Shown: positions 13,758 through 32,126 of the stretch, one piece after another
Layout: the number at the start of each line of letters is the position of its first letter
Position numbering within the stretch: the stretch's first letter is position 1
Source of the DNA: a virus
Virus record (IMG/VR): IMGVR_UViG_3300032288_004702
Location: 1 to 64,000 of that record
Length of the DNA: 64,000 nt
Direction: 5' to 3' (one strand)
The notes under the pieces: generated by a model
Told to the model about the DNA's origin: nothing
Database searches by the model: none
The model's input: the letters and a program-made list of their open reading frames with translations, nothing else
Translations under genes and position numbers: made by a program

Positions 13758-14262
13758 TTTCGGTCTCCTCTAGCTGGCGAAGAAGAAGCATCGATTTCCA
13801 TGCGAAATCACGTTCTTCCAGCGTTTTGAATTCATATATATTGACATCTAACTTTATCATTCCATCACAGCATGAATTGGTCAGCATTTTCTGTTCGATG
13901 TCCCTGTCGATAAAGGACTTGACCGCTCTTTCTGTCTTGTCAATCTTTTTCCCCTTTTTGCCAACAGATTTCTTCGCTGGCATCTTGTCAAGCATTGAGT
14001 CTTTTATCGGGCGTGTCTTTTCTATGAAAGTTTCGTACCATGCTCCAGATGTTGGATTCTTTGGCGCATCCCACAGAAATCTCTGAAAGGGTGTTGAGCG
14101 AAGCTTTCTAAAGTCGCGAGCAGTTGCCGCGATGCTCATTATGTATCCCTTTACGGTTGTTCCATCCGGTTTTTCTATTATTGCGTCTTTTTCTCCGGGC
14201 TTTGCTTCGGCGTTGTAGTACACCCTGCTGTCGTTTAGTAGGCCAACAAGTATTGATTTCAT
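13747..14262 (-). CDS. hypothetical head-module protein
   Basis: 171-aa ORF overlapping both neighbours. Confidence 0.7.
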   Translation of the reverse strand: MKSILVGLLNDSRVYYNAEAKPGEKDAIIEKPDGTTVKGYIMSIAATARDFRKLRSTPFQRFLWDAPKNPTSGAWYETFIEKTRPIKDSMLDKMPAKKSVGKKGKKIDKTERAVKSFIDRDIEQKMLTNSCCDGMIKLDVNIYEFKTLEERDFAWKSMLLLRQLEETENVN

Positions 14263-17200
14263 AGCATCCCGCCAGACGTGGAGGTTATTTGTGGCCTGCG
14301 GCTGTTCTTCATCTCTTTCATCATGTCTTTTGCTGCTTCGGTTATTTCATTTCCGATAGCTTTAATCAGGACAGACTCGACCGACTCCCCACCCTTTGCT
14401 GCCTTGGAGTGTGAGCGCGGGTCCTCTATGTTGAAGCCTGTTGGGTGGGCAAACTTAATGTTGTTCAATCCCTTGCCGGCCATATCTGTCTTAATTTTTT
14501 GCGCCGCCCTATACTGCCTCAGCATTGCCATGCTCTGCGTGTTGATGTTTTTGCCGCCACCAATTGAGTAAAAATACTGAATCTCTTCTGGCGTAAATCC
14601 AGCAGCCCTTAGCCTGTCCGCTATGGACCGCTCGTTCACTGCGTCGCTGATATCTTCTTTTTCACCGGCAGCTTCTAGTCTCTTGAATGGGATATTAATC
14701 TGTTCAATTTCATTTACATCGAATCCGCCAAGTATCTGTGCCTCAAACGGCTCTCTAGATGAGCCATCTGGGAGGTTTCTATCGAACGAATTAGGCATTG
14801 CGCCCTTTGAGCCCCTAGATGCGTTTACGTTAGAGAAGTCATTGTTGATTGATGACGACAACATATGCAGGAATGCTTCCTGTGCTTGTTGATTTCCGTT
14901 TATCCCATCAGGATTAAGGATTGCGTCGGCAACATCTTCCCTATTTCGCGAGTTCAGCTTAACTGGGCGATGCGCCGATGATATCGAGTTTCCACGACCA
15001 TAGGCAGTTCTCTCTGACACAGATGGTCTTAGGACGATTTCTATGTCACCAAATGCGGTCAAGCCGTCACCAACAACATCTTCATCGCCTATTTCGTACA
15101 CCGCGTCTGGTCTTAGATTTCCATTCCTGGAATTCATTATTTGCTGTCTCTTGGCGTCAATGTGCGACTTATGAACAAGATAGCCGCTGACCGGCAAAGA
15201 GTCGGTTGGTACGGAATCTGGAATGCCTATTCGCGAGTAGTACTCCCTTGCGTAGTTTTCCGAGGATAGACCAACAGTCTTCCCAGACTCTATGTCTTCA
15301 CCCTGGTTGGCATTATTCGCAGAACGACCACTTGATAGTCGCAATTTCGCCATTCTTCCAACATTTTCTCTACCACTGGAGAGCCTTGACGACCTCTCAA
15401 TATCAGCAGCGCGAATAATTTCATCTAGCTGGCGCTCTCTTTCTATTGCAGCAGCGCTCGGGCGTCTTGTGTCGGCTAGTCGACGCCTATTTTCAAGAGC
15501 CTCAGCGTAGTTTGCATTGTTTTTTAGGCCAACAGAACCAAGCTGGATGTAGTCGCCTTCTGCGTACTTTTCGTCAATAAGTCGTGGTGCATTTTCCGAG
15601 AGGTCGACTGATATTGCATCAAACTCCTCTTGAGTTATCGGTGATATATCTTCCTGACGGCCTTCCCACTGTAGTTCAGCACCAAGACGCGCCTCCTTAA
15701 TGCCGAAAGCGTCCTGGAACACCTTTCCAAGAGTCAAACCCTCAACAATGTCTGTTTGGACTTCGTTTGCAGACAGGGGTATTTGAAGTTCTTTAGGAAG
15801 AGACCTATTCCCTACAACAATTCCAGCCCACCTATGATGGCCGTCAAGAATGTAATTATCTTTGGTCGTTAGGATTGGCTGCATAAACCATTCCTTGCCC
15901 ATCTCTTCCAGGTACTTCTCTCTAAATTCTGAGTCAGATAGACCTGGTGACTCTTTGCGTATTCTTTCAGCTACCTCGATGGCTTTTTCCTGAATTGTTT
16001 GAGCAGTGCCGTCTACTTTTGATGCCACTAATTGCTGTTGAGATGGCGCGTATTCACTCGGGTCTACTGTTCTTAATCTGACTGCTGGGCCATTTTCTGG
16101 GTCCTCTACAGTTATTATGCCATTTAGCCAATCAATAAATGGCGTTTCAAGGTTTACCTCAGTGTCGTTCCAGTTTGTATTTTCATAAAGCCACTGTTTT
16201 GCGGCATCAGAAAGATTGTCAAAAGAAGCTGCTTTATGCTCTCGTGCCGTAGTGCCGCCGAATTCATTGCGTAGCGAATGTTTTTCAGCAATTATTTCAT
16301 ATAAAATTCCGGGGATTTCCTCGTCTGATACTGGGTCCTCTGGCTCGTCTAGCTCTGCACGCTTCTTATTTATTTTTGCAATTTTTGCGTCGAGCTCGTC
16401 GGCGAATTCTATTTCTAGCTCGCGATTGCGCTTTACTCCATCTTTTGAGGGCTCCCATTTACCCGCAGCAATTCCCGCCTTAAGCGCCATTATCGCCTTT
16501 GTGTTTTGCCCAGACGACCTACCGTTAGTCTGCGGCATTTTCGCCCTATCAATTCCTATATGCCCTGAACACATAAGGTTATTTTCCGGGTTATATAGCG
16601 AGCATAGGTCGGCCTGGTAGTTGCCAACGTACTCATCTTCCATGTCTTTTCTGGTTTTGGGGTTGTCCAGGTCAGCATCTGGATTCAACTTTGCATATTC
16701 ATCCTGGAATGCCTTCCATCTTGGATGCCCGTCTTCTATGTGTTTTTTAGCTACTTCCTTTACCTGTTTCTCAAAAGCTTTTTGCGCCTGCTCGGTCAAC
16801 CTGACATCCTGGTCCTTAACTTCAACATGGTGACCGAGCATCATGAGAGCTACTGCAGTAGAAACATCATCAACTTCATAGAGGTTTGAGTCTTTTTCGC
16901 TAATTGACTTTCTACCTGACCTTTTAACGGAACCACCAAATCTCCTTGATAGTTCAGCGTCAGACATATCATTTACGTTTTGTCCGCTGTTAATAATGTC
17001 GTCAAAGACGGATAGGGCGCGTTTTGCTACTTCTTTTTCTTGACGTCTACGCTCGGCTAAATTTTCACTTGAATCAATAGTTCTGCCTGAGGACAGACGT
17101 GATGAGCGTTGCTCTGCTGGCATCCCGGCGAGGCGCTCTGCTCTCCTAGATGCACGTGAAGCCTCGTCTGAAGGCGATGAAAACGGAGAGCGTATTGAGC

Positions 17201-20200
17201 CACCTGACGCAAGTCTTTCGATGTCTGCATCAGTCGCGCGTACCCTGACTCTTCTGTCAAAACCTTCGTGCATTCTGTACGCGGCCATCTGCGCTCTAAC
17301 TATAAGTACCTCTTCTGGAACATTAGCAATCAGGTCTGCAACTTCCGGATGAATATCACCTCGAGAAATACTGCCGTCACCGCGTCCTCCGCCAAGCGCC
17401 TTTTTGATGTTCCTCGTGATGGATGACATTCTTGATTCGCGCGACTGGGTCCTCTGCTGTCTTGTGGCAGGCCTGCCAAGAGCATCACTTTTTGTCTTTG
17501 CCATAATTGTCGCCGACGCTGCAGCTGCAGCAGCACCAGATGAAAGCCTTGATGAGCCATCTGGCAATTCATCAACACCTTCGCCGAATGAGCCCCCAGC
17601 GTCTATGACATCATCTAGCACTTCAGAAGTTGATTTAGCCGCCGACTCATCGTAGTCGCTCCGCGGGCCCGGGAATGTGTCCCCAGACGCGCGTCTCTTC
17701 GCAACATATCTGTCTGCAACAGCCTGTATCTTTTTCGAGTGGCTTTGCGCCCATATGGCATCAGTTTTATTCTTTGACAAGCTATCTGCCATACTGTCGA
17801 CAACTTCAACAGCGTCTTTCTGGTAAGAAATTTCTGCCCGTATCGTGCCATCGGAATCCCGGCCAATAATTCTCAGCCTTCCAGGCGGTGCAACAAATTT
17901 CTGTTCGCCTTCTCCGCCTGTTGCCGGGAATAGGCCACGGTCACCCTCTCTCACCTGGACAACTACGCGTCGTGAAGTTCTGCCAGTTTTGGCGTCTCTC
18001 CTGCCACGTTCTGGCATGTCTGTCTTTTTGGTTCTGCTTGTTATCACGCGACCAGAAACAAACTTATCAACATCAACTTCCTTCCCGTCCATTTTGCCCT
18101 TTAGGGCCCCTGGTTCGAAGTCGATAATCGCTTCTATTTCAAATGGGTCCGCGACAGACGTACCGTCGATTGCTTCCATCGTTGGTATTAAGAGTTTTTC
18201 GACCTGCTGAACAGCATCTGCTTCATCGGAAGACATTGGGTCAACCTCTAGGCCAAGACGCTTGAGTCTTGCGTTTCTCTTGTTCATTGCACGCCCAGCC
18301 CTTGTCTGGTTGGCGGGGTCAAGAAGCATCCCAACGTCAGATTCCGCTACGTCACCGAGCTCTTTCATGGCTTTCTTTTGTTCTGGCGTAGCTTTTACAC
18401 GTCTGCGCTCACGTGCTCCGTGGTCAGCAGCTTCTTTTGCGCTCTTGAACTTCTTGCTTGGCTTGGGTGGGGGGCTTATTGTGTCCTTTACCCTCTTATC
18501 AATATCTCTCTTAATTGCCGGAATACTCCTGGTATCTCCAGCTTCTTTTAGATTCTTTGCATGTTGGTCTTTTACAACATCGATACGCTCTGCGAGGTCT
18601 CTTGCCTCAGGCGATGCTGGGTCCATTGTTGAAAGGCGCACCTCATCGTCGGCAAGCTTGCGGATTACTTTTTTATCCGGCATACCCTTTACGCGCTCAC
18701 GCAAGTCATCTAGGTCTGCGAGCCTTGCAATTTCTTCCATTTCTCCTGCATCCAAGAGACCCTCGCGCTCCCTGATGGCCCGTACTTTTTCCTCAAAACG
18801 CTTCTTTTCGCCACTAGCGCCAACGCCATACTTTTTTCTCCATAGCTTTGATGCTTCGTCATATCTTTTACTATGAAAATCGAACTCCCTCTGGGCATCC
18901 TTTATCGCTTCTGATTTAAGAAGTTCGAGCGCACTTCTATCATCGTCTGGTAGCGATGGGTCAATTTCCATTGCACTAAAACCATCAACTCTGCGCTTAG
19001 CATCATCGCGCTGAGAGGCAATTATCGCAGCCTCGCTAAACATTTCCTCTTCTGGAAGTTCGCTGAATGCTGTCTTGAATCGCTTTATTTCCTCGCGCAG
19101 CTCCGATGCAAGTCTTTCATCCCTATCCGCAAGCGTCTCTTCAATAACGTCTTCGGGAATATCGTCCGGTACGGTAGTCGGGGTTGGGATGCGGAATACA
19201 TCGTCCATTGACTCCATAGCCGAATCGTCGTCTGCAGAGGCCCTTTCACGCGCTGCGGTGGCAAAACTGAGATTGTCCATCCACTCGAGAGCAGCGTCTA
19301 TGTCATCGCCATAGATGATTCCACGCTCACGCAGTGCCCACAATTCCGCTGCGGCCTCTAGGGCCCAAACCTCAGTGCCTTCGGCGTATACGTCACGCGG
19401 ATATGAGCCCGCAAGTGGAGCTATAGCCTTGATTCTCTCCATTGCGTCATCAAGTGACTCTATGTTTATCGAGTCGGCAACGTCTGTCATTATTGCCATG
19501 ATGTCATCGCCGTTTAGAGCATAAATAGAGTCAACATTCCTTGAGCCGACTGCGACCCCATCGCGCATTATAGGAACAGATATGAAACCCTTTTCGTCTA
19601 TTTCATTTTGAATCTTTTCGACAAACAATTGAGCCTGTCTGTGGTGTGCCAACTCGTGGAGCATAATGTGCCCCGAAAAAGAGTAAACGCCATCGATTAG
19701 GCCTGCCATCCCGCGAGCCGCATAGTCGGCGTTAACCAAAAAGTCAGCCACTGCTAGGCGAGATTCAGCTTCGCTTCTTGCTCCAACTGCAGAAATCGCA
19801 AGACGTTCATCTGGCCTCATATCGGGGAGCATTGACTCCTGGTTTGCCAGAATCATCCCCATATTTATGTGTATGACGCTTCGCAGTTCCCCCGGAACCT
19901 TGCGCATAACTGGATTGCCATCGCGGTCAAGAACTGGTGTTCCGTCTGGATTTAGTCGTGGAACAAGTTCTGGTGCGGACCTATAAACACCTGTTCCAGC
20001 TTCATCTGGGGAGTTAAAGTCATATTCGATTCTGCCCAAAAATCTTGTGCTGGATGGGTCCTTCATGAACTGGTCAAGAAGTGTTTCGAATAATGCTTTC
20101 TCCGTATCTTGGTAGCGCTTCACGTCAGCATCAAGAAGTCGAGTTTGCTCTTCTTTAGACAAAGAAGGCCAGCCAGGTATTGATTCAAGACGTGCTTCAG

Positions 20201-21464
20201 TAAATCTTCTTACTTCCAAATCCGTCAAACGCCCAGCACCACCGCCAGATATGTTGACCAACTGCACATCCCAGCCCGCACGTCCGCCAGAATCTGAATG
20301 CATTTTCTGCAGAGCCTCTACGGCCTTGATATGCGCATCAGGGTCGGCCGGGTCTATTCCTAGCGAATCGTAAAGTCTGGCGACATTTGCTTTTTGTCTC
20401 GCGATATCATCCTGTCCACGAATTGCACCATTCTTAAACATGCGCAAGTTTTCTGGAACTGGGATATCTCTCCACTCCGGAGCCTCAAACTGCTCCGGCC
20501 ATAGCTCTTTGTAATAGGCGCATCTACCAAGAAATGCCGGGTCTGCCACGCCTCGCGATGATTCGCTCCATTGGTCGTTGTATACGAAGTTGAGCAACGA
20601 CCTAGCCGTATTTCTAAGCCCCTGGTATTCGCCTTCTGCGGTCATCTGCGCTGCTTGGCGTGCAGCAAATCTTGCAAAACGTGATGCACTAAAGCCGAAA
20701 CAGTTTGAACCAGTTGCATCGGTGAACTGATTGGCGGCAGGAGTTCCAGGCGGGCATCTGAATTTGTTATTTTCGTCCCGCAGAACACCAAATGCTGCGG
20801 CAGCGCGTGCTAAAAGTGAGCCCCCCGGAACGCGCGAGGCCAAACTTCTGCCAGGGAGCATTTTTTGCTCAACACCATTGTTTTTATGCTTTTGCAGTGC
20901 GCGTTGTTTTTCTTCGTAGGTCATCCCTGCGGCAATGCCAAAGGGGTCCATGACCCTTTCTGATTCAGGTATTACTTCGTCTGTTTTGGGGTTGACTTTG
21001 TATTTGCTTATTTTGATTGATGGCTTTTTTCTATAGCGCTCTATCAGCTCATCGAATGTCTTTGTTTGGTTTGGGGATGGAGAAATCCACCCAACATTTG
21101 GGCCAGTCCCCATGCCTTCACGTGACTGGAACGATGGGCTAATTACGAGTTTGTCGCCCGGCTCCCATTTCTTTGATGATTCCCACCTATACCCGAGGTT
21201 GTTTGACTCTACGCCAGGCTGCTTATCGCCGCTGAAGTCTCTTTTCTTATTGTCTGTGTCCGTGTAGGCCTTTACGCGAATTCCAAAGTTTGAGGTAATC
21301 GCTTTTACGGCAAGCTCAGGCTCAAGCCTTCCAGTTGATACAGATGAGTTTATTGCACGCCTGAATCTAATTGCTTTTTCGTTGAATCCACCACAGCATG
21401 AAGTTGGGACTATAAGCCGGGCAGAAACTATGACTCTTTCGCGTGTAGCAGGGGTATCCGCCAC
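14259..21464 (-). CDS. 2401-aa polyvalent protein (zincin peptidase, ART-like, ParB-like, DUF3626-like)
   Basis: HELAH (19644-19658) with downstream EAAAE; VIP2-like ART-shaped segment (~17820-18400); GIDRAKMPQ...PSQ...ILDGHHRW ParB-like; PVSGYL...FGDIEIVLRP...RTAY...EAQILGG DUF3626-like. Confidence 0.75.
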   Translation of the reverse strand: MADTPATRERVIVSARLIVPTSCCGGFNEKAIRFRRAINSSVSTGRLEPELAVKAITSNFGIRVKAYTDTDNKKRDFSGDKQPGVESNNLGYRWESSKKWEPGDKLVISPSFQSREGMGTGPNVGWISPSPNQTKTFDELIERYRKKPSIKISKYKVNPKTDEVIPESERVMDPFGIAAGMTYEEKQRALQKHKNNGVEQKMLPGRSLASRVPGGSLLARAAAAFGVLRDENNKFRCPPGTPAANQFTDATGSNCFGFSASRFARFAARQAAQMTAEGEYQGLRNTARSLLNFVYNDQWSESSRGVADPAFLGRCAYYKELWPEQFEAPEWRDIPVPENLRMFKNGAIRGQDDIARQKANVARLYDSLGIDPADPDAHIKAVEALQKMHSDSGGRAGWDVQLVNISGGGAGRLTDLEVRRFTEARLESIPGWPSLSKEEQTRLLDADVKRYQDTEKALFETLLDQFMKDPSSTRFLGRIEYDFNSPDEAGTGVYRSAPELVPRLNPDGTPVLDRDGNPVMRKVPGELRSVIHINMGMILANQESMLPDMRPDERLAISAVGARSEAESRLAVADFLVNADYAARGMAGLIDGVYSFSGHIMLHELAHHRQAQLFVEKIQNEIDEKGFISVPIMRDGVAVGSRNVDSIYALNGDDIMAIMTDVADSINIESLDDAMERIKAIAPLAGSYPRDVYAEGTEVWALEAAAELWALRERGIIYGDDIDAALEWMDNLSFATAARERASADDDSAMESMDDVFRIPTPTTVPDDIPEDVIEETLADRDERLASELREEIKRFKTAFSELPEEEMFSEAAIIASQRDDAKRRVDGFSAMEIDPSLPDDDRSALELLKSEAIKDAQREFDFHSKRYDEASKLWRKKYGVGASGEKKRFEEKVRAIREREGLLDAGEMEEIARLADLDDLRERVKGMPDKKVIRKLADDEVRLSTMDPASPEARDLAERIDVVKDQHAKNLKEAGDTRSIPAIKRDIDKRVKDTISPPPKPSKKFKSAKEAADHGARERRRVKATPEQKKAMKELGDVAESDVGMLLDPANQTRAGRAMNKRNARLKRLGLEVDPMSSDEADAVQQVEKLLIPTMEAIDGTSVADPFEIEAIIDFEPGALKGKMDGKEVDVDKFVSGRVITSRTKKTDMPERGRRDAKTGRTSRRVVVQVREGDRGLFPATGGEGEQKFVAPPGRLRIIGRDSDGTIRAEISYQKDAVEVVDSMADSLSKNKTDAIWAQSHSKKIQAVADRYVAKRRASGDTFPGPRSDYDESAAKSTSEVLDDVIDAGGSFGEGVDELPDGSSRLSSGAAAAAASATIMAKTKSDALGRPATRQQRTQSRESRMSSITRNIKKALGGGRGDGSISRGDIHPEVADLIANVPEEVLIVRAQMAAYRMHEGFDRRVRVRATDADIERLASGGSIRSPFSSPSDEASRASRRAERLAGMPAEQRSSRLSSGRTIDSSENLAERRRQEKEVAKRALSVFDDIINSGQNVNDMSDAELSRRFGGSVKRSGRKSISEKDSNLYEVDDVSTAVALMMLGHHVEVKDQDVRLTEQAQKAFEKQVKEVAKKHIEDGHPRWKAFQDEYAKLNPDADLDNPKTRKDMEDEYVGNYQADLCSLYNPENNLMCSGHIGIDRAKMPQTNGRSSGQNTKAIMALKAGIAAGKWEPSKDGVKRNRELEIEFADELDAKIAKINKKRAELDEPEDPVSDEEIPGILYEIIAEKHSLRNEFGGTTAREHKAASFDNLSDAAKQWLYENTNWNDTEVNLETPFIDWLNGIITVEDPENGPAVRLRTVDPSEYAPSQQQLVASKVDGTAQTIQEKAIEVAERIRKESPGLSDSEFREKYLEEMGKEWFMQPILTTKDNYILDGHHRWAGIVVGNRSLPKELQIPLSANEVQTDIVEGLTLGKVFQDAFGIKEARLGAELQWEGRQEDISPITQEEFDAISVDLSENAPRLIDEKYAEGDYIQLGSVGLKNNANYAEALENRRRLADTRRPSAAAIERERQLDEIIRAADIERSSRLSSGRENVGRMAKLRLSSGRSANNANQGEDIESGKTVGLSSENYAREYYSRIGIPDSVPTDSLPVSGYLVHKSHIDAKRQQIMNSRNGNLRPDAVYEIGDEDVVGDGLTAFGDIEIVLRPSVSERTAYGRGNSISSAHRPVKLNSRNREDVADAILNPDGINGNQQAQEAFLHMLSSSINNDFSNVNASRGSKGAMPNSFDRNLPDGSSREPFEAQILGGFDVNEIEQINIPFKRLEAAGEKEDISDAVNERSIADRLRAAGFTPEEIQYFYSIGGGKNINTQSMAMLRQYRAAQKIKTDMAGKGLNNIKFAHPTGFNIEDPRSHSKAAKGGESVESVLIKAIGNEITEAAKDMMKEMKNSRRPQITSTSGGML

Positions 21465-21478
21465 CTGGCGCCCCCTTT

Positions 21479-23062: not shown

Positions 23063-23127
23063 ACAACTCCCGTTAGTGCAGGGAAATGACCTGATGGACC
23101 ATTAACCATTAAATGTCTTTAAATTAT

Positions 23128-23163
23128 AACCTATCACGCTATACATGCGTGAATTAGCAACAC
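23128..23163 (-). promoter_or_regulatory. putative late promoter
   Basis: GTGTTGCTA-N21-TAGGTT, with a TCACGC/GCGTGA inverted repeat in the spacer. Confidence 0.5.
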
Positions 23164-23189
23164 CAGTTAGTTCTGTTCAATTTTTATTG

Positions 23190-26100
23190 CTACTTTTTGC
23201 CAGAGGTTCTCTTCTTGCCTGAGAGTGTTTCCCCAGACTCGATTCTTTCCCTAGCTGTCCTCAACTGCTCGTCGCTAAATATGTCGTCGATGGTGTAGCT
23301 GGTGCCGAATATTTCATTAAACCTGTCAACCATTGATTGCATTTCTGCGCCAGAGAATCGCGGCTCATTTCCCTTTTTGGGAGACCATGGGGAGCCTTTC
23401 GCCGTGGCAGCAGCGCTCAGTGTCACGCCCATGTCCGTTGCCCCAGTGATTCTGTTCCGATTATCTCTGTTATTAAGTCTTGAATCAGGGAAACTCTTGT
23501 CAATGAACTCGTTTAATGCTTCATAGACAACATATTTTGAGTTTTTAAGTTCTGAATCAAAACGCTCGCCGGTATCTCCGTCTTTCCAGACTGACGAGGC
23601 GTCGGGCAGAACGCCGGTCCTAATCATCTGCGCAACGGTTGCAGTTGGAATTCCGTTCTTTGACCATTCATTGTTAATTCCGACATCGTCGGTACCAAAT
23701 GCGGCAGAAAGTCTTTCTTGCAATCCCTTTTTCCACTCCGCCCTGTCTATGCCGAGATAGTCAAGTAATGGCTCGATTTCAAAGTCTTCTCGTGAAGTCT
23801 TGTCTGCGATTATTGCCTCGCCAGCGCGCGCAACCTGCTCATCAGATGGGTTCAGAAGGTCGAATGATTCGCCGTATAGGTCAACTTCAGCCTCGGAATC
23901 ACCCTTTGTTGCGCTGTCTGGGGCAAATCGTCCAGTTGCACGGAATTTAGAAACCTCGCTGACCTCACCTAGCTGAGCGTACTCATCCGGCGTCATTGAC
24001 TCGTTCTCTTCCGTGTCAAACCAATGCGGGAAAGCGTCTTTACCGAATGTCTCGATAATGAATCTGTCTCGCATATTTGCGCGTCCAGCATTCTCTCTTG
24101 CTAGGTCAACATATGGGATATTTTCCGTCGTGTCGCCATCTGGGGATGGGATAATTCTCTTTGCCTCGTCAGCCGTTACGGGGGCAAAATATCTCCATGC
24201 TGCAAGGTCTGGCTGTTTGCCGAGCTCGGCAACTAACAAACGAACTGCATCATGGTTGATACCGGCGTCTGGCTCCTTGATTTTTGCTGTGTCGGCAGGG
24301 CTCAGTCCGAGCATTTTAGCCAACTCTTCACGTGTTGCTGGCCTTGATTGCGTCCAGCGAATCGTGGTGCCGCCTTCAGTATTTTCCCGTGAGGTGAACT
24401 CCGTTGGTATCCGTATTGTTTCGGCGAGCTTGTCTACCGAAAGCATCCACGTCTCAGCAGAAGGATTCTCGTTTCTGGAGTTGTCGCCAACTCTTCCAAC
24501 TCTGACGCGGTTCTGCTTCATCTGCATTGCCTTGCCAACATCCCTCATTGCCCCGCGCGTTCTTTGCTGGCGCTCATTTACTGAAAGGTCGTCAACATCG
24601 ACATCGATGGCAATGCCACGCTTGCGGACGCCATCCCATGCCTGCATTGCGTACTGTAGAGCCTCGCGATTTCGTGGAGTATCTGGGTTGCCATCTATGC
24701 GTATGCCGGCAAGCTGCTGGGCGCTAAGTGTGCCTGGATAAATGCTGCTTCCTGCGACGCGGCGGCTTCTGCGGCCAGGACGAGTGCCTGTCGCGCCGCT
24801 AGATAGGCGCATAGCTGTTCCATCGGCATTATCACCGTAATCCGCTTCCCCGTCTCCATCTATGTCATTGTCACGAATAGAGCCATCGATATCGTCATCT
24901 GTATCGATGTCGTCAGGTTCATAATCTTCTTTGTCTATGCCAATTTCGTTACCGTTTTCAGACCCAGGACCATCAGTAATCATGTCGTCCGTGATGACAA
25001 TAGGGCTATCGTCTTTTTCTTCCTTCTTATTCCCACGAGGTGGAAGGTTTTCAAAGTCAATATCCTCGAGGCGCGTTTCATTTAGTTGTTTATAGAATGC
25101 TGGCAGAGGTATCCCGCCATCATCGCTGAAAGCGCCTTTGTCAAGCTCCTGTGGGATGTGCCCATCTTTCACTGCCTGCGTCATTGCTGCGCGAATGTCT
25201 TTGGTCTTTTCATCATGCAAGTAGAATGCAAACGCTTTTGCGCCGGGGTCAATCATTTCCTTGGCGCGCGACATCGCTACGTGAACAAGGTTCGCTTCTT
25301 CCATGTAGCCGATAGATGCTTGACCAGGCTGTAGGGATTGGGCGATTGACTCCGCAGGGTCGCTCAGGTCTTCTGCTATTGCAACAAATCTCGACTCGCG
25401 ACCCTTTGACAGCTGCATTGTTGTTATTTCAACATCTCCGCCAGCATGTCTTGCCTCATCGCGTAGCGCTTGACCAATTCTATTTAGAATGTCGGCGCTT
25501 TCTTCTAGCGTTGCCCCCTCGATAACAAAACCATCATAAGCGCGTCGCTTTGCGTTTCCTTTCATGCCCTTTTCGGCTCCAGCCTGCGGTTTTACTTTAT
25601 CCTGAAGCCCGAGGCGCTTGATGATTTTTTCTAGGTCTCTTCTATAGCGTCCATTGCCGCCCTTGCGGTTTCCTGGAGGCTGGTTTGGAGACTGTGAGCC
25701 ATCTGGATTATCGATTGGACGCCCAGTATCAGCGCCATCTCCAGTTATCAGAATACGCCCAGTTGGCTTTCCTGGTTTTTTATTATCTCCGCCATCGATT
25801 TCAAGCTGTGCATACACTGCTTGGCGACCATCATTTGCAAATTTCGGCTGCGGTATTATTATTATTTGAGCCCTTTGGCTATCGATTGCCTGAACTGCCT
25901 CTGCAGCAGTTTTGCCGCGGGATATCCGAAGAACCTCTTCCCGTCCCGCAGTAAACGCATCTAGCTCAAGGGTCTTTCTTTCCGGGAGAAGACTTGGCGG
26001 TATAACCTTGACAATCTCTTTTCCTTTGTCGTTGGTCTCTCTTATCTGGCGCCCTTCAAGGAGGGTCAGCATGCCCATCGTTCCAAGTGGAGGGGCAGTT

Positions 26101-29100
26101 TTGTCGCCCTTGGGAGGCTCCATAATTAGCCTAAATGCAGTATTTGCCTGCTGATATCCAGCTTGATTAAGAATTCTCTCCAAGCCCTTTGCATCATAAA
26201 TCGGCCCAAGCCAGCTCGACTGTTCTGGAAGGCCAAACTTTTTCCTATATTCAGCTTTTGCAGTTGGCGACTTAAGTATGTAATCGAGATGTTTTGTAAA
26301 TTTGAGCAATTCTTCCCATTTGCTCAATGGGATGATTACTTCTGGCAGCTTCGGCAACCCATTTTCGTCGCGCTCAACGGCATCGCTATTGATTACTAGG
26401 CGTACGAAGTTAAGGGCCTCGTTGATTATCTCTGCGTTGCTTCTACACAGAATCATTGTTGGTAGATTGCCCTTATCGGCTTCTTCGACTCTGTCAACAA
26501 TCTTGCCAGCCTTGGGGCCGTATAGACTGTCTCTTAGCTCTGTTAGCGCAACATCTTGGGCATCGCGGTCCATTGCCGATATGTCAAGTTTTTTATCCGG
26601 CGTGGAGAATTTCTTATCTATGTCGGCAATCATTAGGGCGCGAGTTGCGTCGTCTACTTCATCTACCGGGTTATTACCTTTTCTGTCTTTTTCAGGGAGG
26701 AGGGGGTCGAAAAGTCTATTAATAACAGTCTGGGCCTGGCCCTTGACGTGTTTCCACGGGAGCTGGGGAACCCCCTGCTTGCGCAAGTAAAGATTTTGTT
26801 GCCCAAGAACAAGGTTAGCTAGATGCCCAATCACTTCCCCATATCTAAATGATTCTGTAATTGTCAATGCGTAGTCTGCATCCAGTGATTCAAGAATATT
26901 CTTTGCTTCGCGGAAAGCATAGACAGCCTGCCTATCGTCGCCCACAATAACAATAGGAAGATTTTTTCTGTTAGCGTCAAGAACGGCTTCTAGAACCTCG
27001 TTTGAGTCCTGTGCTTCGTCCACCATAAATGCGCCAAGTGGATTTTCTTTTGTTGCCATTCTTTTTGCGAGTTTTGCCTCGTTGTTTTTGCTGCCTTGCT
27101 GTTTTTTAACAGAAGTAACAATCCACTCTGCGCCATCTTTATCGACAATAACGTCGCCAACGGAGTACGAGTTTGGTATCTGGACCTTGTCTCTTGTTTG
27201 ATTTTCGGTATGTGTTATAAGGCCTGGGTCGCTGCGAAGGTCGGGATTTGTCAACATCCACAGTTTGGCAATTGAATCCCGTGGCGGAAGCATGTTGTTG
27301 TTACCGTCAGACATTGCGTCTATCGCTTTTTGTAGGTAACCGACCCATGAGTCTGGGATTTGCGCATCAGTCAAGACGGTGTCTACGGCGTGACGTTTTT
27401 TGCTTTGGCCCCTCTGTGTATCGAGTTCCTGCAGCACCCTTTCGGATGGTGTAAACATCCATTTTGCTGCTTTTTCTTCTTTTGATATATTCCAACGCTT
27501 AAGCGCATTGTTGAATACGTCTCCCATTTCCTCAATGGAGACGAATGTGCCGTCTGGGAGATTGAAGCCAGTTACTTCATACTCCTCCATTTGGGGCTTT
27601 CCGTCAGGGCCACGAACAACCTTCCCCTTGGCGTCCCTCACTTTGCGGCGTCGCTTCTGGGTTATCTGGTCTGGCCACTTATCCATGCCAAGGAACTTGG
27701 CCCAGTCCGTGCCGTCGTCTAGACGCTCCCATCCAAGGGCTCTGTATCCAGGCTCTTCTCCTGAGAATGTTTCAAAAGAGCCATCAAATAGTTCTCTTAC
27801 ATAATCAAAAGGAATGAACTCTGGCTCATCTGGGGTTTTTTCTGCGCTGATGAATTTTGGATTCTTTTTTGCACCGCGCGTCTTTTTTGATTCTGCACCG
27901 AGAAGAGCGAATTGCATTTTCCTGCGCATCCCCACGCCGTATCTCTCGTCCCCCTGGCCAAGCTTCAGAGACCAATACCAGAGCTTGTCGGTCGTGGAGA
28001 TTCCGGTATTCTTGGGGAATTCAAGTTCTGCTTCGAGCTGGTTCTTTTTATTGAACACTGCATAGTAGATATTGCCAATTTGATTTTCTTTTGCAAGCTT
28101 GTCTACTGCCGCCTTCACCTCATCAGCAGACATACCAGAGAAATCGACCTTGTATCTGTCCGCTAGATAGGCAAGCTGCTCGTCGCGTCTCTTATCGCCC
28201 TCTGGCCAAAGGTCAAACTCGCGCTGCAATGCCCACGCAATGCTCTTGAGTGTCGTTGTTTTACCAGTTCCGGCGCCGGCCAATATTGACAATATGCGCG
28301 GGTCTTTTTGTCTTATCAAGCGCATTGCGACATCCATGATGTCCCTCTGCTCATTTGTTGGCTCGTTTGCTAGACCAAAAGCAAACTTCATTGATATTTT
28401 TTCGTCTGTCCGCTCTACCTCTGGGACGCCATCTTTGCGCCCCTTAATTGGCCCGGCTGATTTACCACTGGCTAGACGACCGGATGGCGTTATTACAATT
28501 CCGTCCTTATTCTTCGACGGAGCATTTGGTGAGCGGTCAAATGAGCGAAGCTCGCGTTCGGCGACGCTTAGATTGACTGCGTCTGGAACAAGAGCTTCAA
28601 ATTCATCTGTATCCAACAGGTCTTCCATTGGTCCAGTTATTGTCGTGGTTGGCTTTATGCTTGGAGCGTCTTCGTAGCCGGCAAGCATCGGAACCTCAAA
28701 CCACGTGTCCATCCTGCCCTTGCGCTCGTCGTCCGGTATTCCGGCGAGTCGGCGCATTGTCGCTGAACGATTAAGCAGGTAATCGTTTGCCTGCTGTGCC
28801 TGAAGAATTGCGCGATGAAGGGCGAGTGGGTCCTGCTTCAGTTTCTTCAGCCATGAGTTTAGGTAAAGAAGATGGTCTTCTCTGACGGTTGGCTCAAGAC
28901 CCATTGCGCCCATTGCAAATGCTGAGCCAATTTCAGCAACAAGTTCCTCAAATGCATACTGTTCATCACCGAACTGCAAACCGAGCGTTCTGTTAAGTCT
29001 TGTTGGATGAGAAGTCCAGTGAATGGTCTCATGCATGGCGGTCCCATAGAAAGCAAGTGCATTTTCAAATTGCTCAAACGCCGGCATGTGTATTTTATCT

Positions 29101-32100
29101 GTTGATGGGCGATAGAAAGCCTGTGAACCCTTAGACTCAACAAACGCAGGACCAATCTCCTGAATTACGTTCTCAATATCCTGAAGCCGCTCTTCCTGAT
29201 TTATCTCTAAATCATCAACTTTGTAGAACCTTTCAGGAAGGCCCTCTACATCGTCAACGTTATAAACAGTTTGGACAACGTAGAATTTTCCTTGACTCAC
29301 TTCTTTCCCGTCAGAGCCAACAAACGTTCTTCCCTCGCGAGGTACCAGAATTGCGACACCCTTGCTGCGTGCCCCGGGCTTTAGTCGACCACCCAAACGC
29401 TTCCACTGGCTCTCCCCTGCCCACCTGCTGGTTTTGTATCCGCGCGCAGAACCAGTAAGTGAAAGAATCATCTGGTTCATGCCCTGATAGATGCGACCGC
29501 GCGTTGGATTACGCGCGTATAGCTCTGGATTTCTCCACGGCATCTTCCACTGCCCAGCCTTGTCTGGGTTATCAATTAGCTCCTGTAGGAGGTCGACAAT
29601 GTTCTTTGCCATCTCTTCGTACAGCTCTTGTAGCTGAGATGAATCCTCCGGAAGCTCCGCTTTGTCTTTTAGCTTTCCTGAAGAAAGTGAAGCCAGTGGA
29701 CCGTCAAACTTTCTTGCTTCATCGCGCGAGCGCTTGGACTCTGGCTTATCCAGGTACTTGGCATAACCACTCGACAGCATCTGCGTGTCGGCTGCCTGCG
29801 ATGCTGTTTTTGGAGCCTTGCGGACAATTGATTCTTTTTTGGGTTTTGCTTTTGGCTTCTTCTCGCGCTCCATGTCGCGTTCTGCAAGCTTTTCAACCCT
29901 CTTCATGTATCTATCTAGCTCGGCAATAGCTTTCTTTAAGCGCTTTACCTGCTCTGGGTCGGTCGCACCATCAAGTACACCCTGAAGCTCATCTCTCTGT
30001 GATTCCGCAATTCCGTATTTTTGAGCAGAATCAACATCCGGGTCGTCGATGCGGGGGAGGTCAAACAGTTTTCCGCTACTCAAAACAAAATCATCGGCTG
30101 ATGAGGGTTTTGTGGGGGCTGGCCCACGTGAATACTTGCCCGGCTTTTCTCTGAAATTTTCATCAAGCTCCGGTCTACTGACCGGTTTGGTAAATTTTGG
30201 TACCCCTATTTCAGACTCTGGCTTGGCGAGCTGGCGTGGTGATGGTTTTGGGTTCCTTATCGAGCCTGGCCCATCTGGTGTCGGGTCCGGCGTGGCGAGG
30301 GGTACGCCTCGGAGAAACAATCCCTCTCCAACTATCCCGTTAAGGTTTGCATCACGAGCTGTGAATGGGTCGAAGTCTTCCGCCCCAATTGATGTGAAGA
30401 ATCTTCCGCGCGAGCGTCCGCCACCAATGTTTGGTCTGTCTATTAATCTGCTGCCGATTGCGCGGCCAAGCCTATAGCCAGCCGCTTTCCATTCTATGTC
30501 GTCTTCAGTTAGAGATTTTTTTTTTAGGTTTTCTATAGCGGTATCAACCGCCTCAATCAGTTCGTAGCTAACGCCAGACGTCATGACGATTCCATCAACG
30601 TCGACAAACGAATCAACACCGTGGTAATCAAAAATTGGGTCTAGGGCCTGCTTTACGCGGAATGCAAACTTGGGCATTATCGGAAGCACATAAGCCTTGC
30701 CTGAAACATCGTCATCGTCAGGCATTCCAAATTCGCTGAGCGTCTTATACTTGCGGCGCTTCTTGCGACGTCTGCCGATTGCGCCACGGAGGCCAGCTAT
30801 TAGAAGTTCCCCTGGGTACTTGACCTCAAGGTCATATACGTAATCCTCTTCGTTTACTTCTTCGTCTATCTCGTAGCTCTTCTTGGCCATTGCATCGCCA
30901 TTAACGACGCCATTAGGTATAACCGCAAAGCGGCACTTGCCCTCTGACTCAATGTCCATATCAATTATCTTGCAGGAATTTCCACCCTGGAAAAAGACGC
31001 AGTTCGCGCACTTAACCCCAATTCCCGCAACCGGGTTCTCGGCTGCTGGCTTATATCCAGCCCATACGCCGTCCGAATCCTCGTTGAATTTGCCGTGGCG
31101 CTTTACGATTTTTAGCAACGCATCGCGTAGGTCGGCTTCCTCTTTGTCGAGGTTGTTGGGGTCAAAATCTTGTTCTTTTTCGTTTTCGTACTCAACCGGG
31201 GGAAGGGGGACGATTCTGTTTCCATTCTCCCCAGGCTTAATCGCTATCGGCATCGACGGCATTTGCGGAGGGCGCACAATTCTGCGTGGCTCATCCATTG
31301 GCATCATCGGTTGAGACATTGGGGCGACCGGCTTGCGTGTCGGAAGAACTATGATTTGCTCTGGTGCGCCAAACATGAAACGACCATGATTTCGGCTAAA
31401 TCCACACTTGAAGCGCCCAACCTCGCCATTTTCCATTCTTTTAGCGAAAGTTATTTCATCTTCCCCAATATCCATAAGGGAGACTTTTGAGCCAATGATT
31501 GTTGCTAGCTGCTTTTCTAGTTCGGCGCGGTCGATAGAGTCGTCTTCGTCGTCCATCATGGCCATCGCACCCATTGCCATGTCCTCCGACTTTACGGAAA
31601 TAGTTCCGGTGAGCTGATTTGCCCCATGAAGAACTGGGGAAACCTCATAAAGCTCCAGCTCATAGATGACATTCGCCTGAGACTTCTGGTCATATTGAGC
31701 GCGCAGGGTCTTGTAGCCAATTGACCACTCCTGCTCTTCACCAAAAAACGCAACCATCGCAAATGCTTCGCGGCCTTTTTCTGAGTTAAGGTTAAATTGC
31801 ACTCTTGCAAATAGACCGCCGATGCCGGCCATCTTCATTTTCATCGGGAGGCGCGGGTCGGTATTGGGAACTTCGTAAATCTCTAGAACTTTTCCGATTG
31901 GGTCGTTCCAGTTGTGCCCCCATACAACTCTTGGCTTTCTGCGCTGGAGGCTCTTCGTAAAAGCCCCACTGGAAACAATGTCGCCTACGGAGTCCCTATT
32001 GCCAATGCCGGCAACAAAACACTCAACTATCCCCTGAGCCTCGTCCAGATTAATCGCTCCGGCCTTAGCGGAAATCCCGCTACCTAGCGAAGTTGACTTA

Positions 32101-32126
32101 TATTCGAACAGTTCAGCCGGCATCAA
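23190..32126 (-). CDS. 2978-aa prohead protease-fused polyprotein (S78 protease, HiPIP-like, ArdC/zincin, UvrD-like SF1 helicase, unknown C-terminus)
   Basis: Protease: WGHNW, WSIGY, LYEVSPV. ArdC: WKMPW..NPTRGRIYQGMN...AFYRPSTDKIHMP...HETIHWT...YAFEELVAE. Helicase: AGAGTGKTT, DEAQD, GDDRQAVYAFR, SFRYG, SKGRE, HVAMSRA. Confidence 0.88.
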   Translation of the reverse strand: MMPAELFEYKSTSLGSGISAKAGAINLDEAQGIVECFVAGIGNRDSVGDIVSSGAFTKSLQRRKPRVVWGHNWNDPIGKVLEIYEVPNTDPRLPMKMKMAGIGGLFARVQFNLNSEKGREAFAMVAFFGEEQEWSIGYKTLRAQYDQKSQANVIYELELYEVSPVLHGANQLTGTISVKSEDMAMGAMAMMDDEDDSIDRAELEKQLATIIGSKVSLMDIGEDEITFAKRMENGEVGRFKCGFSRNHGRFMFGAPEQIIVLPTRKPVAPMSQPMMPMDEPRRIVRPPQMPSMPIAIKPGENGNRIVPLPPVEYENEKEQDFDPNNLDKEEADLRDALLKIVKRHGKFNEDSDGVWAGYKPAAENPVAGIGVKCANCVFFQGGNSCKIIDMDIESEGKCRFAVIPNGVVNGDAMAKKSYEIDEEVNEEDYVYDLEVKYPGELLIAGLRGAIGRRRKKRRKYKTLSEFGMPDDDDVSGKAYVLPIMPKFAFRVKQALDPIFDYHGVDSFVDVDGIVMTSGVSYELIEAVDTAIENLKKKSLTEDDIEWKAAGYRLGRAIGSRLIDRPNIGGGRSRGRFFTSIGAEDFDPFTARDANLNGIVGEGLFLRGVPLATPDPTPDGPGSIRNPKPSPRQLAKPESEIGVPKFTKPVSRPELDENFREKPGKYSRGPAPTKPSSADDFVLSSGKLFDLPRIDDPDVDSAQKYGIAESQRDELQGVLDGATDPEQVKRLKKAIAELDRYMKRVEKLAERDMEREKKPKAKPKKESIVRKAPKTASQAADTQMLSSGYAKYLDKPESKRSRDEARKFDGPLASLSSGKLKDKAELPEDSSQLQELYEEMAKNIVDLLQELIDNPDKAGQWKMPWRNPELYARNPTRGRIYQGMNQMILSLTGSARGYKTSRWAGESQWKRLGGRLKPGARSKGVAILVPREGRTFVGSDGKEVSQGKFYVVQTVYNVDDVEGLPERFYKVDDLEINQEERLQDIENVIQEIGPAFVESKGSQAFYRPSTDKIHMPAFEQFENALAFYGTAMHETIHWTSHPTRLNRTLGLQFGDEQYAFEELVAEIGSAFAMGAMGLEPTVREDHLLYLNSWLKKLKQDPLALHRAILQAQQANDYLLNRSATMRRLAGIPDDERKGRMDTWFEVPMLAGYEDAPSIKPTTTITGPMEDLLDTDEFEALVPDAVNLSVAERELRSFDRSPNAPSKNKDGIVITPSGRLASGKSAGPIKGRKDGVPEVERTDEKISMKFAFGLANEPTNEQRDIMDVAMRLIRQKDPRILSILAGAGTGKTTTLKSIAWALQREFDLWPEGDKRRDEQLAYLADRYKVDFSGMSADEVKAAVDKLAKENQIGNIYYAVFNKKNQLEAELEFPKNTGISTTDKLWYWSLKLGQGDERYGVGMRRKMQFALLGAESKKTRGAKKNPKFISAEKTPDEPEFIPFDYVRELFDGSFETFSGEEPGYRALGWERLDDGTDWAKFLGMDKWPDQITQKRRRKVRDAKGKVVRGPDGKPQMEEYEVTGFNLPDGTFVSIEEMGDVFNNALKRWNISKEEKAAKWMFTPSERVLQELDTQRGQSKKRHAVDTVLTDAQIPDSWVGYLQKAIDAMSDGNNNMLPPRDSIAKLWMLTNPDLRSDPGLITHTENQTRDKVQIPNSYSVGDVIVDKDGAEWIVTSVKKQQGSKNNEAKLAKRMATKENPLGAFMVDEAQDSNEVLEAVLDANRKNLPIVIVGDDRQAVYAFREAKNILESLDADYALTITESFRYGEVIGHLANLVLGQQNLYLRKQGVPQLPWKHVKGQAQTVINRLFDPLLPEKDRKGNNPVDEVDDATRALMIADIDKKFSTPDKKLDISAMDRDAQDVALTELRDSLYGPKAGKIVDRVEEADKGNLPTMILCRSNAEIINEALNFVRLVINSDAVERDENGLPKLPEVIIPLSKWEELLKFTKHLDYILKSPTAKAEYRKKFGLPEQSSWLGPIYDAKGLERILNQAGYQQANTAFRLIMEPPKGDKTAPPLGTMGMLTLLEGRQIRETNDKGKEIVKVIPPSLLPERKTLELDAFTAGREEVLRISRGKTAAEAVQAIDSQRAQIIIIPQPKFANDGRQAVYAQLEIDGGDNKKPGKPTGRILITGDGADTGRPIDNPDGSQSPNQPPGNRKGGNGRYRRDLEKIIKRLGLQDKVKPQAGAEKGMKGNAKRRAYDGFVIEGATLEESADILNRIGQALRDEARHAGGDVEITTMQLSKGRESRFVAIAEDLSDPAESIAQSLQPGQASIGYMEEANLVHVAMSRAKEMIDPGAKAFAFYLHDEKTKDIRAAMTQAVKDGHIPQELDKGAFSDDGGIPLPAFYKQLNETRLEDIDFENLPPRGNKKEEKDDSPIVITDDMITDGPGSENGNEIGIDKEDYEPDDIDTDDDIDGSIRDNDIDGDGEADYGDNADGTAMRLSSGATGTRPGRRSRRVAGSSIYPGTLSAQQLAGIRIDGNPDTPRNREALQYAMQAWDGVRKRGIAIDVDVDDLSVNERQQRTRGAMRDVGKAMQMKQNRVRVGRVGDNSRNENPSAETWMLSVDKLAETIRIPTEFTSRENTEGGTTIRWTQSRPATREELAKMLGLSPADTAKIKEPDAGINHDAVRLLVAELGKQPDLAAWRYFAPVTADEAKRIIPSPDGDTTENIPYVDLARENAGRANMRDRFIIETFGKDAFPHWFDTEENESMTPDEYAQLGEVSEVSKFRATGRFAPDSATKGDSEAEVDLYGESFDLLNPSDEQVARAGEAIIADKTSREDFEIEPLLDYLGIDRAEWKKGLQERLSAAFGTDDVGINNEWSKNGIPTATVAQMIRTGVLPDASSVWKDGDTGERFDSELKNSKYVVYEALNEFIDKSFPDSRLNNRDNRNRITGATDMGVTLSAAATAKGSPWSPKKGNEPRFSGAEMQSMVDRFNEIFGTSYTIDDIFSDEQLRTARERIESGETLSGKKRTSGKK

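Follow-up and report, generated by a model that had tools for sequence, protein, structure and literature searches.

We analysed the first 64 kb (hereafter the window) of the 156,276-bp IMG/VR phage record IMGVR_UViG_3300032288_004702, which carries direct terminal repeats. The short peptide LSSG recurs in two giant proteins of the head module, in a third giant protein encoded outside the window and in the tail tape measure protein. This motif is selected, conserved in position, located in linkers and specific in its form to each genome, and its form co-varies between the giant proteins and the tape measure protein. In our reading, LSSG is probably a proteolytic processing code that is read by a phage-encoded protease, a prediction drawn from sequence comparisons. 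Packaging and cutting of the giant proteins, the scissile bond and the enzyme are what we infer from the observed patterns. An earlier note on the window had already interpreted LSSG as a processing signal. Enrichment, location in linkers and sharing with the tape measure protein all hold in our analysis, one of the enzymes it proposed as a reader does not, and cleavage itself is predicted.

Distribution and drift of the motif

Giant 1 (2978 aa; window positions 23190-32126, minus strand; matches to PF04586, PF08401, PF18818 and PF00580 and to PHROGs) contains LSSG at aa 682 (30072-30083), aa 784 (29766-29777), aa 814 (29676-29687) and aa 2441 (24795-24806), as well as the related LASG at aa 1218 (28464-28475). 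Giant 2 (2401 aa; 14259-21464, minus strand) is composed of a conserved, motif-free N-terminal unit of 1300 aa, followed by modules that are separated by sites. Its LSSG copies are found at aa 1307 (17535-17546), aa 1457 (17085-17096), aa 2028 (15372-15383) and aa 2043 (15327-15338), and LASG is present at aa 1418 (17202-17213); all sites of both proteins are encoded on the minus strand. The third giant (3061 aa; genome positions 145149-154334, minus strand) lies outside the window and contains nine copies of LSSG. A 1595-aa protein encoded on the plus strand (48998-53785) carries the motif at aa 36 (KLSSGR; 49103-49114, plus strand) and, within a Gly/Pro-rich linker, at aa 581 (VLSSGR; 50738-50749, plus strand). 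It has no family match and was recognized by its position, its length and its composition rich in Gly and hydrophobic residues. Because the genes for sheath, tube and tail chaperone precede it, we assign it as the tape measure protein of a myovirus-type tail. The positions given in the earlier note for the four, four and two copies in giant 1, giant 2 and the tape measure protein were all correct, each being the low coordinate of the 12-nt site. Its statement that other predicted proteins lack the motif was borne out as well: none of the 35 other open reading frames of at least 150 aa in the window encodes LSSG.

Ten copies of LSSG in the 18.7 k residues of the window compare to 0.63 copies expected from composition (Poisson p 1.5e-9). 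This enrichment is far beyond chance. Among all tetrapeptides of the window, LSSG is the second most over-represented, the first being the PGMP repeat of the portal protein. In the whole genome, we counted 20 copies against 1.7 expected (Poisson p 5.6e-15), and 19 of these 20 are confined to four proteins, the three giants and the tape measure protein. All 19 sites differ in their 12-nt sequence, and serine codons of both the TCN and the AGY type are used. Therefore, the peptide rather than the DNA is conserved, as had been proposed. Chance, composition bias or copied DNA repeats could be invoked as an explanation, since the linkers are rich in Ser and Gly. But with these p values, with different DNA at each site and with dozens of independent relatives carrying the motif, we assign practically no probability to it. 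Compared with the background of these proteins, the residues flanking the sites are less hydrophobic (permutation p 1e-4). Long stretches are free of the motif, namely aa 1-681 of giant 1 and aa 1-1306 of giant 2, both of which include candidate enzymes, and the helicase module of giant 1 (aa 1218-2440).

We collected 80 related loci by homology to an acidic 527-aa protein, whose gene is located between those of giant 1 and giant 2 (21479-23062, minus strand; no family match). Most of these loci show two to 13 copies of LSSG per homologous giant and none in the 527-aa homologue. A logo of 179 dereplicated sites reads [R/K/G]-L-S-S-G-[R/A/K], with Ser, Gly and charged residues in the flanks. 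When ten giant 1 orthologues are aligned, the sites stand out as conserved islands within variable, indel-rich linkers; the site at aa 2441, for example, is such an island amid indels, and the LASG of the window at aa 1218 aligns to LSSG in six of the nine other orthologues. Both enrichment and conservation of position in homologues, which the earlier note had suggested to look for, were thus found.

In clades lacking LSSG, a variant of it takes its place as the top tetrapeptide of the giants, namely FSSG(R), GFSS, GFAS, (R)GMAS(R), GLRS or GLSSG. We analysed three contigs of such clades (G001, G002 and G003) as a whole and compared them to the genome of the window (G000). Collagen-like repeats aside, the clade variant represents the top tetrapeptides genome-wide in all three, and it is confined to the giants, the third giant, a few head-module proteins of 790-1294 aa and the tape measure protein. 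Within each genome, a single coherent variant is used, and phages with major capsid proteins (MCPs) that are 71-94% identical have different ones.

The tape measure protein follows the giants of its own genome. With [RK]LSSG in the giants of G000, its tape measure protein contains the KLSSGR and VLSSGR mentioned above. The respective pairs are RGMASR in the giants and GGMSSR at aa 596 of the tape measure protein in G001, GF[AS]S and GGFASR at aa 608 and 619 in G002, and GFAS and DGFASS at aa 784 in G003. The tape measure proteins of the loci L198-L200 carry RFASGQ at aa 36 and RFASRG at aa 45, and further downstream GFASG at aa 594 and GFSSG at aa 647. The site at aa 36 is kept in all nine homologues from viral contigs (six with LSSG, three with F-A-S-G), and a variant occurs near this position in G002 and G003, but not in G001. 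The second place, with the clade variant at aa 596-619 in G001 and G002 and at aa 784 in G003, is conserved, too. This co-variation between giants and tape measure protein, which are unrelated proteins within a genome, is our strongest evidence and indicates that the motif is read by a single genome-encoded factor. It also agrees with the earlier note, which had pointed out that giants of the ejected type and the tape measure protein have the motif in common. The system described there comprised two giants and the tape measure protein; the third giant and the family-wide drift of the motif go beyond it.

The S78 domain of giant 1 (see below) was also used to search an independent library of 1.8 billion representative proteins, in which 294 representative clusters matched with E<1e-30. 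In the best 150 of these 294, the S78 domain is N-terminal (58-88% identity), and the proteins are 1000 to 5358 aa long. For 48 of the 62 S78-fused proteins of at least 1500 aa, the top tetrapeptide is over-represented with p<1e-6. A family written as G[LFM][SAR]S / [LFM][SAR]S[GRST], to which 0.045% of all tetrapeptides belong, includes the top tetrapeptide of 38 of these 48. As many as 21 copies occur in one protein of this library. Distant members show a punctuation that has drifted further (aGMAg, dTGRMs, GPVGxM[AS], GSRSr). Overall, the family consensus is (G)-[L/F/M]-[S/A/R]-S-(G/R/S/T), written in two syntaxes, x-PHI-S-S-G and G-PHI-[A/S/R]-S-[R/S/T]. The split between the two is the deepest of the S78 tree, and the position PHI switches between L, F and M among sister lineages and even inside one genome.

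These variants also bear on the question of whether the reader could be supplied by the host. A host protease would be able to reach the tape measure protein, and in some systems host proteases act on head proteins of phages, as Prp does with Staphylococcus phage 80alpha (PMC5744158). However, one coherent variant per genome, differing among phages as close as those mentioned above, makes a host protease quite improbable. Because the variants differ between close relatives, a co-inherited phage factor fits better than a housekeeping protease of the host.

Domain borders and the proposed processing scheme

Giant 1 comprises the S78 domain (aa 33-183), an ArdC-N domain (aa 834-925), an MPTase-PolyVal domain (aa 984-1106), a UvrD-type helicase (aa ~1250-2290) and a C-terminal module, with ~500 aa between the S78 domain and the cargo modules. 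The sites at aa 784 and 814 precede ArdC-N, the one at aa 1218 separates ArdC/MPTase from the helicase, and aa 2441 lies C-terminal to the helicase. In giant 2, the sites at aa 1457 and 2028 surround a folded domain of aa 1462-2022 (15399-17081, minus strand; predicted local distance difference test score, pLDDT, 80-90) with a DGHHR signature resembling ParB/sulfiredoxin proteins. A Foldseek search of the giant 2 model against PDB gave only weak, partial sulfiredoxin/ParB matches. The third giant contains a DEDD/RNase T exonuclease domain (aa 790-981) flanked by sites at aa 747 and 1033. Several unrelated conflict and DNA-processing domains in one polypeptide are a trait of polyvalent proteins, represented here by ArdC-N, MPTase-PolyVal and UvrD in giant 1, the DEDD exonuclease in giant 3 and the ParB-like domain in giant 2.

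AlphaFold2 models were built on orthologue alignments for aa 600-1260 of giant 1 and aa 1250-2100 of giant 2. Of nine modelled sites (seven LSSG, two LASG), seven are located in or beside disordered segments at domain borders. In giant 1, the site at aa 682 terminates a disordered stretch of more than 80 aa, aa 784 is immediately C-terminal to a disordered segment, and aa 1218 is part of the disordered linker between MPTase and helicase. The giant 2 sites at aa 1307, 1457, 2028 and 2043 all have a pLDDT below 50. Two of them bracket the folded domain closely, aa 1457 being 5 aa N-terminal to it and aa 2028 6 aa past its end, and aa 2043 is a second, tandem site in the disordered linker that also holds aa 2028. 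The LASG at aa 1418 lies in a low-confidence segment flanked by two disordered stretches. A comparison of modelled domain boundaries with the sites, which had been suggested before, therefore mostly gives disordered linkers at borders. The claim that sites mark the borders of ArdC, the helicase and the ParB-like domain is mostly confirmed by domain matches and models. The border of an ART-like domain, named in the same claim, is not backed by any search: for this domain, Pfam, PHROGs, PADLOC and PDB sequence searches returned nothing. For giant 2 as a whole, neither Pfam nor PHROGs gave a match when thresholds were lax, and its PADLOC and PDB sequence searches were likewise empty.

A short peptide in disordered segments need not be a cut site. 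It could instead be a signal for binding, such as docking to the capsid interior, the DNA or the ejection channel, or for modification of its Ser residues. Most linear motifs are located in disordered segments, all carriers, the tape measure protein included, are expected to pass the tail tube, and no cut has been seen. But the pattern resembles that of polyproteins, with domains bracketed within 5-6 aa, tandem sites and up to 21 copies per protein, and no candidate partner or modifying enzyme was found. We know of no precedent for such a binding or modification signal and regard this explanation as unlikely, if less so than a host protease.

Upstream of the first site, giant 1 contains a module (aa 541-630; 30237-30506, minus strand) that is shared with aa 18-110 of the third giant (blastp E 1e-3, hidden Markov model E 5e-25). 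We found a related module in ten cargo proteins of three other clades, where its form is clearer: K-[S/A/G]-[I/L]-G, a basic stretch and then FDPNAWDGDGDG[IV]VQEGTPFERPAIPG, including a DxDxDG stretch that resembles a calcium-binding loop. In these clades, giant 1 contains the module, the third giant has it at its N-terminus, and four to six more head-module proteins (790-1294 aa) carry it as well. In the latter, it is positioned at aa 225-310 (aa 384-444 in one of them; E 1e-24 to 1e-38). In most cases, a motif site follows no more than ~75 residues past the module. We regard the module as a candidate capsid-targeting or anchor region, and the first cut would release the cargo from it. The K-S-I-G at its start is similar to the boundary of the MCP described below, another candidate relationship.

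In the scheme we propose, the giants would be built into the head, giant 1 by means of its fused S78 protease and giant 3 and other cargo by means of the shared module upstream of the first site. A phage endoprotease would cut the exposed linker motifs, thereby releasing ArdC/MPTase, the helicase, the ParB-like domain, the DEDD exonuclease and others. The freed modules would then leave the virion together with the DNA, and the same enzyme would cut the tape measure protein at its two conserved places. If the tape measure protein is cut, at least part of the cutting has to take place outside the closed prohead, for example after ejection. Packaging of the giants into the virion and their delivery with the DNA are suggested by the prohead-protease fusion and the position in the head module.

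Candidate proteases

Two domains encoded in the head module could act as the reader. The first is the S78 (HK97 gp4-type) prohead protease domain of giant 1 (31578-32030, minus strand; PF04586). It scores 44.6 bits against a cut-off of 21 in Pfam and matches the PHROG head maturation protease with E 1e-28, and a PDB sequence search with the S78 unit found nothing. Candidate catalytic residues lie within WGHNW and EWSIGY: H71 and S135 are invariant in 38 relatives and in all clades, and H167 is kept in at least 90%. The second is a zincin-like domain of giant 2 (aa 480-760; 19185-20027, minus strand) with a HELAH motif at aa 603-607 (19644-19658). Across 15 clade representatives, its HExxH and a Glu located ~96 aa further downstream do not vary, and a Gln three positions past the second His is kept in at least 90%; the domain is otherwise only 18-46% identical among these representatives. 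Used as an alignment, the zincin-like region gave no Pfam match at E<5 to 10 and no PHROG or PDB sequence match, and Protein Atlas returned scores below 0.9, which we treat as leads only. With known zincin families (MPTase-PolyVal, DUF4157 and others), it shares the HExxH..Q..E signature only. Taken together, both domains keep their catalytic residues over all clades, apart from locus L073, which has HExxxH. We consider the S78 protease a possible reader and the HExxH domain of giant 2 a possible one as well, neither being probable by itself, and hold it for rather improbable that another protease of phage or host takes this role.

If the fused S78 protease were the reader, it would dice the giants inside the prohead during maturation, like gp21 of T4 or gp175 of phiKZ. 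Known recurring short motifs of head-internal proteins are indeed read by the prohead protease (PMC10052503). In our phages, the S78 domain and giant 1 form one polypeptide, giant 1 often has more sites than any other protein, and fusion and motif co-occur in 38 of 48 independent proteins. The most constant residue of the motif is a Ser that follows S, A or R, resembling the x↓Ser sites of assemblin-fold proteases. Such sites are A↓S in herpesviruses and K↓S in HK97. The prohead protease of SPN3US prefers Ser at P1' (PMC10052503). Furthermore, the few variable S78 positions right after the catalytic Ser track the motif class (R occurring with PHI-SSG, Q/T/N with G-PHI-R-S and D with G-PHI-[AS]-S; ~50 proteins). 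But this tracking is confounded by phylogeny and mixed in locus L081. As the motif classes are separated by a single deep split in the S78 tree, the correlation between residue and motif is not independent evidence. The motif changes even between close relatives: sister proteins with seven S78 substitutions have GLSSG versus GLASG at aligned sites, and the sites of the tape measure protein would be out of reach in the prohead.

The MCP (451 aa; 8232-9587, minus strand; PF05065) speaks on both sides of this question. Its N-terminal delta-like region closes with L-S-S-R-E-I-K-S-I-G (aa 95-104), and having L-S-S-R at this place speaks for the S78 protease as the reader. However, the protein lacks an exact LSSG, and the boundary is more like an HK97-type K↓S-I-G. 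E-[IL]-K-[SG]-[ILV] occurs only twice in the proteome of 48.7k residues, both times in the N-terminal region of the MCP (aa 55 and 99; window positions 9275-9425, minus strand). The K-S-I-G that includes part of the second one resembles the K↓S-L-G maturation site of HK97 and may be an HK97-like K↓S maturation site, a lead for a separate code of the S78 protease. A comparison of this boundary with the cargo motif gave an ambiguous picture as to co-variation.

A separate code of this kind is part of the alternative that there are two proteases and two codes. Here, the HK97-type protease would carry the cargo into the prohead and make K↓S maturation cuts only, and the unclassified zincin-like domain of giant 2 would read the drifting linker motif, either in the head or after ejection. 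We regard such a system as conceivable, though not as the probable solution. HExxH and the distal Glu are invariant in representatives of all clades. Because the domain is only 18-46% identical and evolves fast, it could follow a drifting motif. In four genomes, the unit of 1150-1300 aa that contains it is free of the motif and directly followed by a site. The order of G, R or K and then L, F or M would suit a hydrophobic P1' preference, which is common among zincins. Once ejected, such an enzyme might encounter the cargo as well as the tape measure protein. Processing of polyvalent proteins by zincins has been predicted, possibly after injection (PMC5512222). On the other side, giant 2 lacks the shared module, and the position of its gene is the only sign that it would be present in the virion.

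The ArdC-type MPTase of giant 1, the HETIH zincin that the earlier note had listed among the cleaving enzymes, was rejected as the common reader. It does not occur in giant 1 of clades with 10-13 copies of the motif or in G001-G003, and is thus absent from many motif-bearing relatives.

A number of observations weigh against a processing code or against one of its presumed readers. Neither an observed cut nor a cultured relative is known, and the closest isolates (47% MCP identity) do not have the giants. The site at aa 814 of giant 1, 20 aa N-terminal to ArdC-N, lies in a confidently modelled short coil (pLDDT ~80). MCP, portal protein and 527-aa protein do not contain the exact motif. The S78 domain is 58-88% identical over clades with differing motifs, and the MCP, its essential substrate, is highly conserved, too. 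The zincin-like domain matches no known peptidase family, its peptidase activity being predicted from the HExxH motif, and L073, with HExxxH instead of HExxH, nevertheless has seven GLRS sites. Finally, the sites of the tape measure protein, which lies outside the prohead, would not be explained by a mechanism confined to the head. A literature search for cleavage of tape measure proteins by a prohead protease found none.

Known systems and genomic setting

Short motifs read by a protease of the head module are known from several phages. T4 gp21 recognizes L/I-x-E, with a capsid targeting sequence, and gp175 of phiKZ and gp245 of SPN3US recognize A-x-E, in each case on internal or ejection proteins (PMC10052503). 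In SPN3US and phiKZ, the prohead protease cuts head and ejection proteins at AXE (PMC10052503). Our phages resemble them in having a short recurring peptide in proteins that would be packaged and delivered and a protease encoded in the head module; the removal of an N-terminal targeting part by the cut in these systems can be compared with the module preceding the first site (PMC10052503). In contrast to T4 and phiKZ, the protease is of the HK97/S78 type and fused to cargo, the motif drifts among close relatives, and the tape measure protein carries it. Confinement of the substrates to the head, as expected for sets of the T4 LxE and phiKZ AxE type, does not hold here: two conserved, co-varying sites are found in the tape measure protein. 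Also, a single propeptide is removed in T4 and phiKZ, while the sites described here separate up to ~20 enzyme modules per polypeptide. As in HK97 gp4 and the delta region of gp5, there is a Pfam S78 domain with conserved His and Ser and an MCP with an N-terminal delta-like region. But gp4 of HK97 is ~225 aa long and has no cargo, unlike the S78 domain here, which heads proteins of 1000 to 5358 aa.

Processing by embedded peptidases has been predicted for polyvalent proteins by Iyer, Burroughs, Anand, de Souza and Aravind in 2017 (PMC5512222). These proteins likewise combine ArdC-N, MPTase, helicase, ParB-like and nuclease domains and are predicted to be packaged. However, no cleavage motif was defined, and their assemblin-like peptidases are located at C-termini only, in contrast to the N-terminal S78 domain (PMC5512222). 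Unlike in that set of proteins, the MPTase is dispensable here, and an explicit, conserved and co-varying punctuation is visible. In polyproteins of RNA viruses with 3C/NS3-type proteases, a single translation product is cut at a similar repeated short consensus in interdomain linkers, with co-evolution of site and enzyme. They differ from the present case of a double-stranded DNA tailed phage, whose products would be accessory enzymes delivered by the virion instead of a replication machinery, and there is no homology. A head-module protease reading a short motif, polyvalent proteins and their predicted processing were thus known before; new are this particular motif code and its drift. A literature search did not find a paper describing the motif or the lineage.

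If the motif is a cut site, it provides a rule, readable from sequence, for finding proteins injected by a large uncultured lineage. Giant "hypothetical" proteins could be split into functional units and their mature termini predicted. The processing of polyvalent proteins predicted in 2017 would become open to direct tests, having defined substrates and two defined candidate enzymes, and the 10 to 30 sites of a genome, which drift coherently, would represent a natural case of protease-substrate co-evolution. The sites of the tape measure protein would join head cargo and tail in one processing scheme. Should the system with two codes apply, a new zincin would dice the tape measure protein as well as up to ~30 effector modules in each virion, either in the head or after ejection. 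This would be a polyprotein strategy for injected enzymes, in which the motifs also serve as module borders for shuffling.

On the minus strand of the window, the gene of the portal protein is followed by those of giant 1, the acidic 527-aa protein, giant 2, five smaller proteins and the MCP. Among isolates, Gordonia phages and Brevibacterium phage Cantare come closest (MCP identity 47-48%, protease ~40%); in these phages, the protease gene directly neighbours the capsid gene, and giants are missing between the two. A megablast search of the region against 50,697 isolated phages gave zero matches, as did a tblastn search with the N-terminal unit of giant 2. The third giant is not encoded in the head module. 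Its gene (in the region 140000-156276 of the genome) is located downstream of genes for a helix-turn-helix and an AAA_25 protein and adjoins a Toprim gene at the start of the window, and cargo genes are thus scattered over the genome.

The 527-aa protein has a Cys-rich N-terminus with two CxxC-like pairs and an extremely acidic middle part. Its C-terminal half (aa 206-527) is 65-88% identical among 80 relatives. We rejected this gene as a candidate for the MCP gene, the true one being located at 8232-9587 (PF05065), and rejected the protein as a substrate, too: no conserved cut motif is present across 15 homologues.

In relative L065 (2-9193, plus strand), giant 1 is represented by two open reading frames in the same frame (1459 and 1604 aa) with a single stop codon between them. 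Read-through, recoding, a pseudogene or a sequencing error are the options for this split. The portal protein (32256-34361, minus strand; PF04860), which carries no LSSG motif, has the tandem PGMP repeat (PGMPGMPGMPGMP...) in its C-terminal half, at aa ~421-446 (window positions 32900-33100, minus strand). Met/Pro-rich stretches are also found C-terminal to the S78 domain in relatives. The tetrapeptide statistics of G000, G002 and G003 are dominated by long, collagen-like triplet repeats of the type G-x-T (GATGPTG...) located outside the window; these repeats probably belong to fibre proteins.

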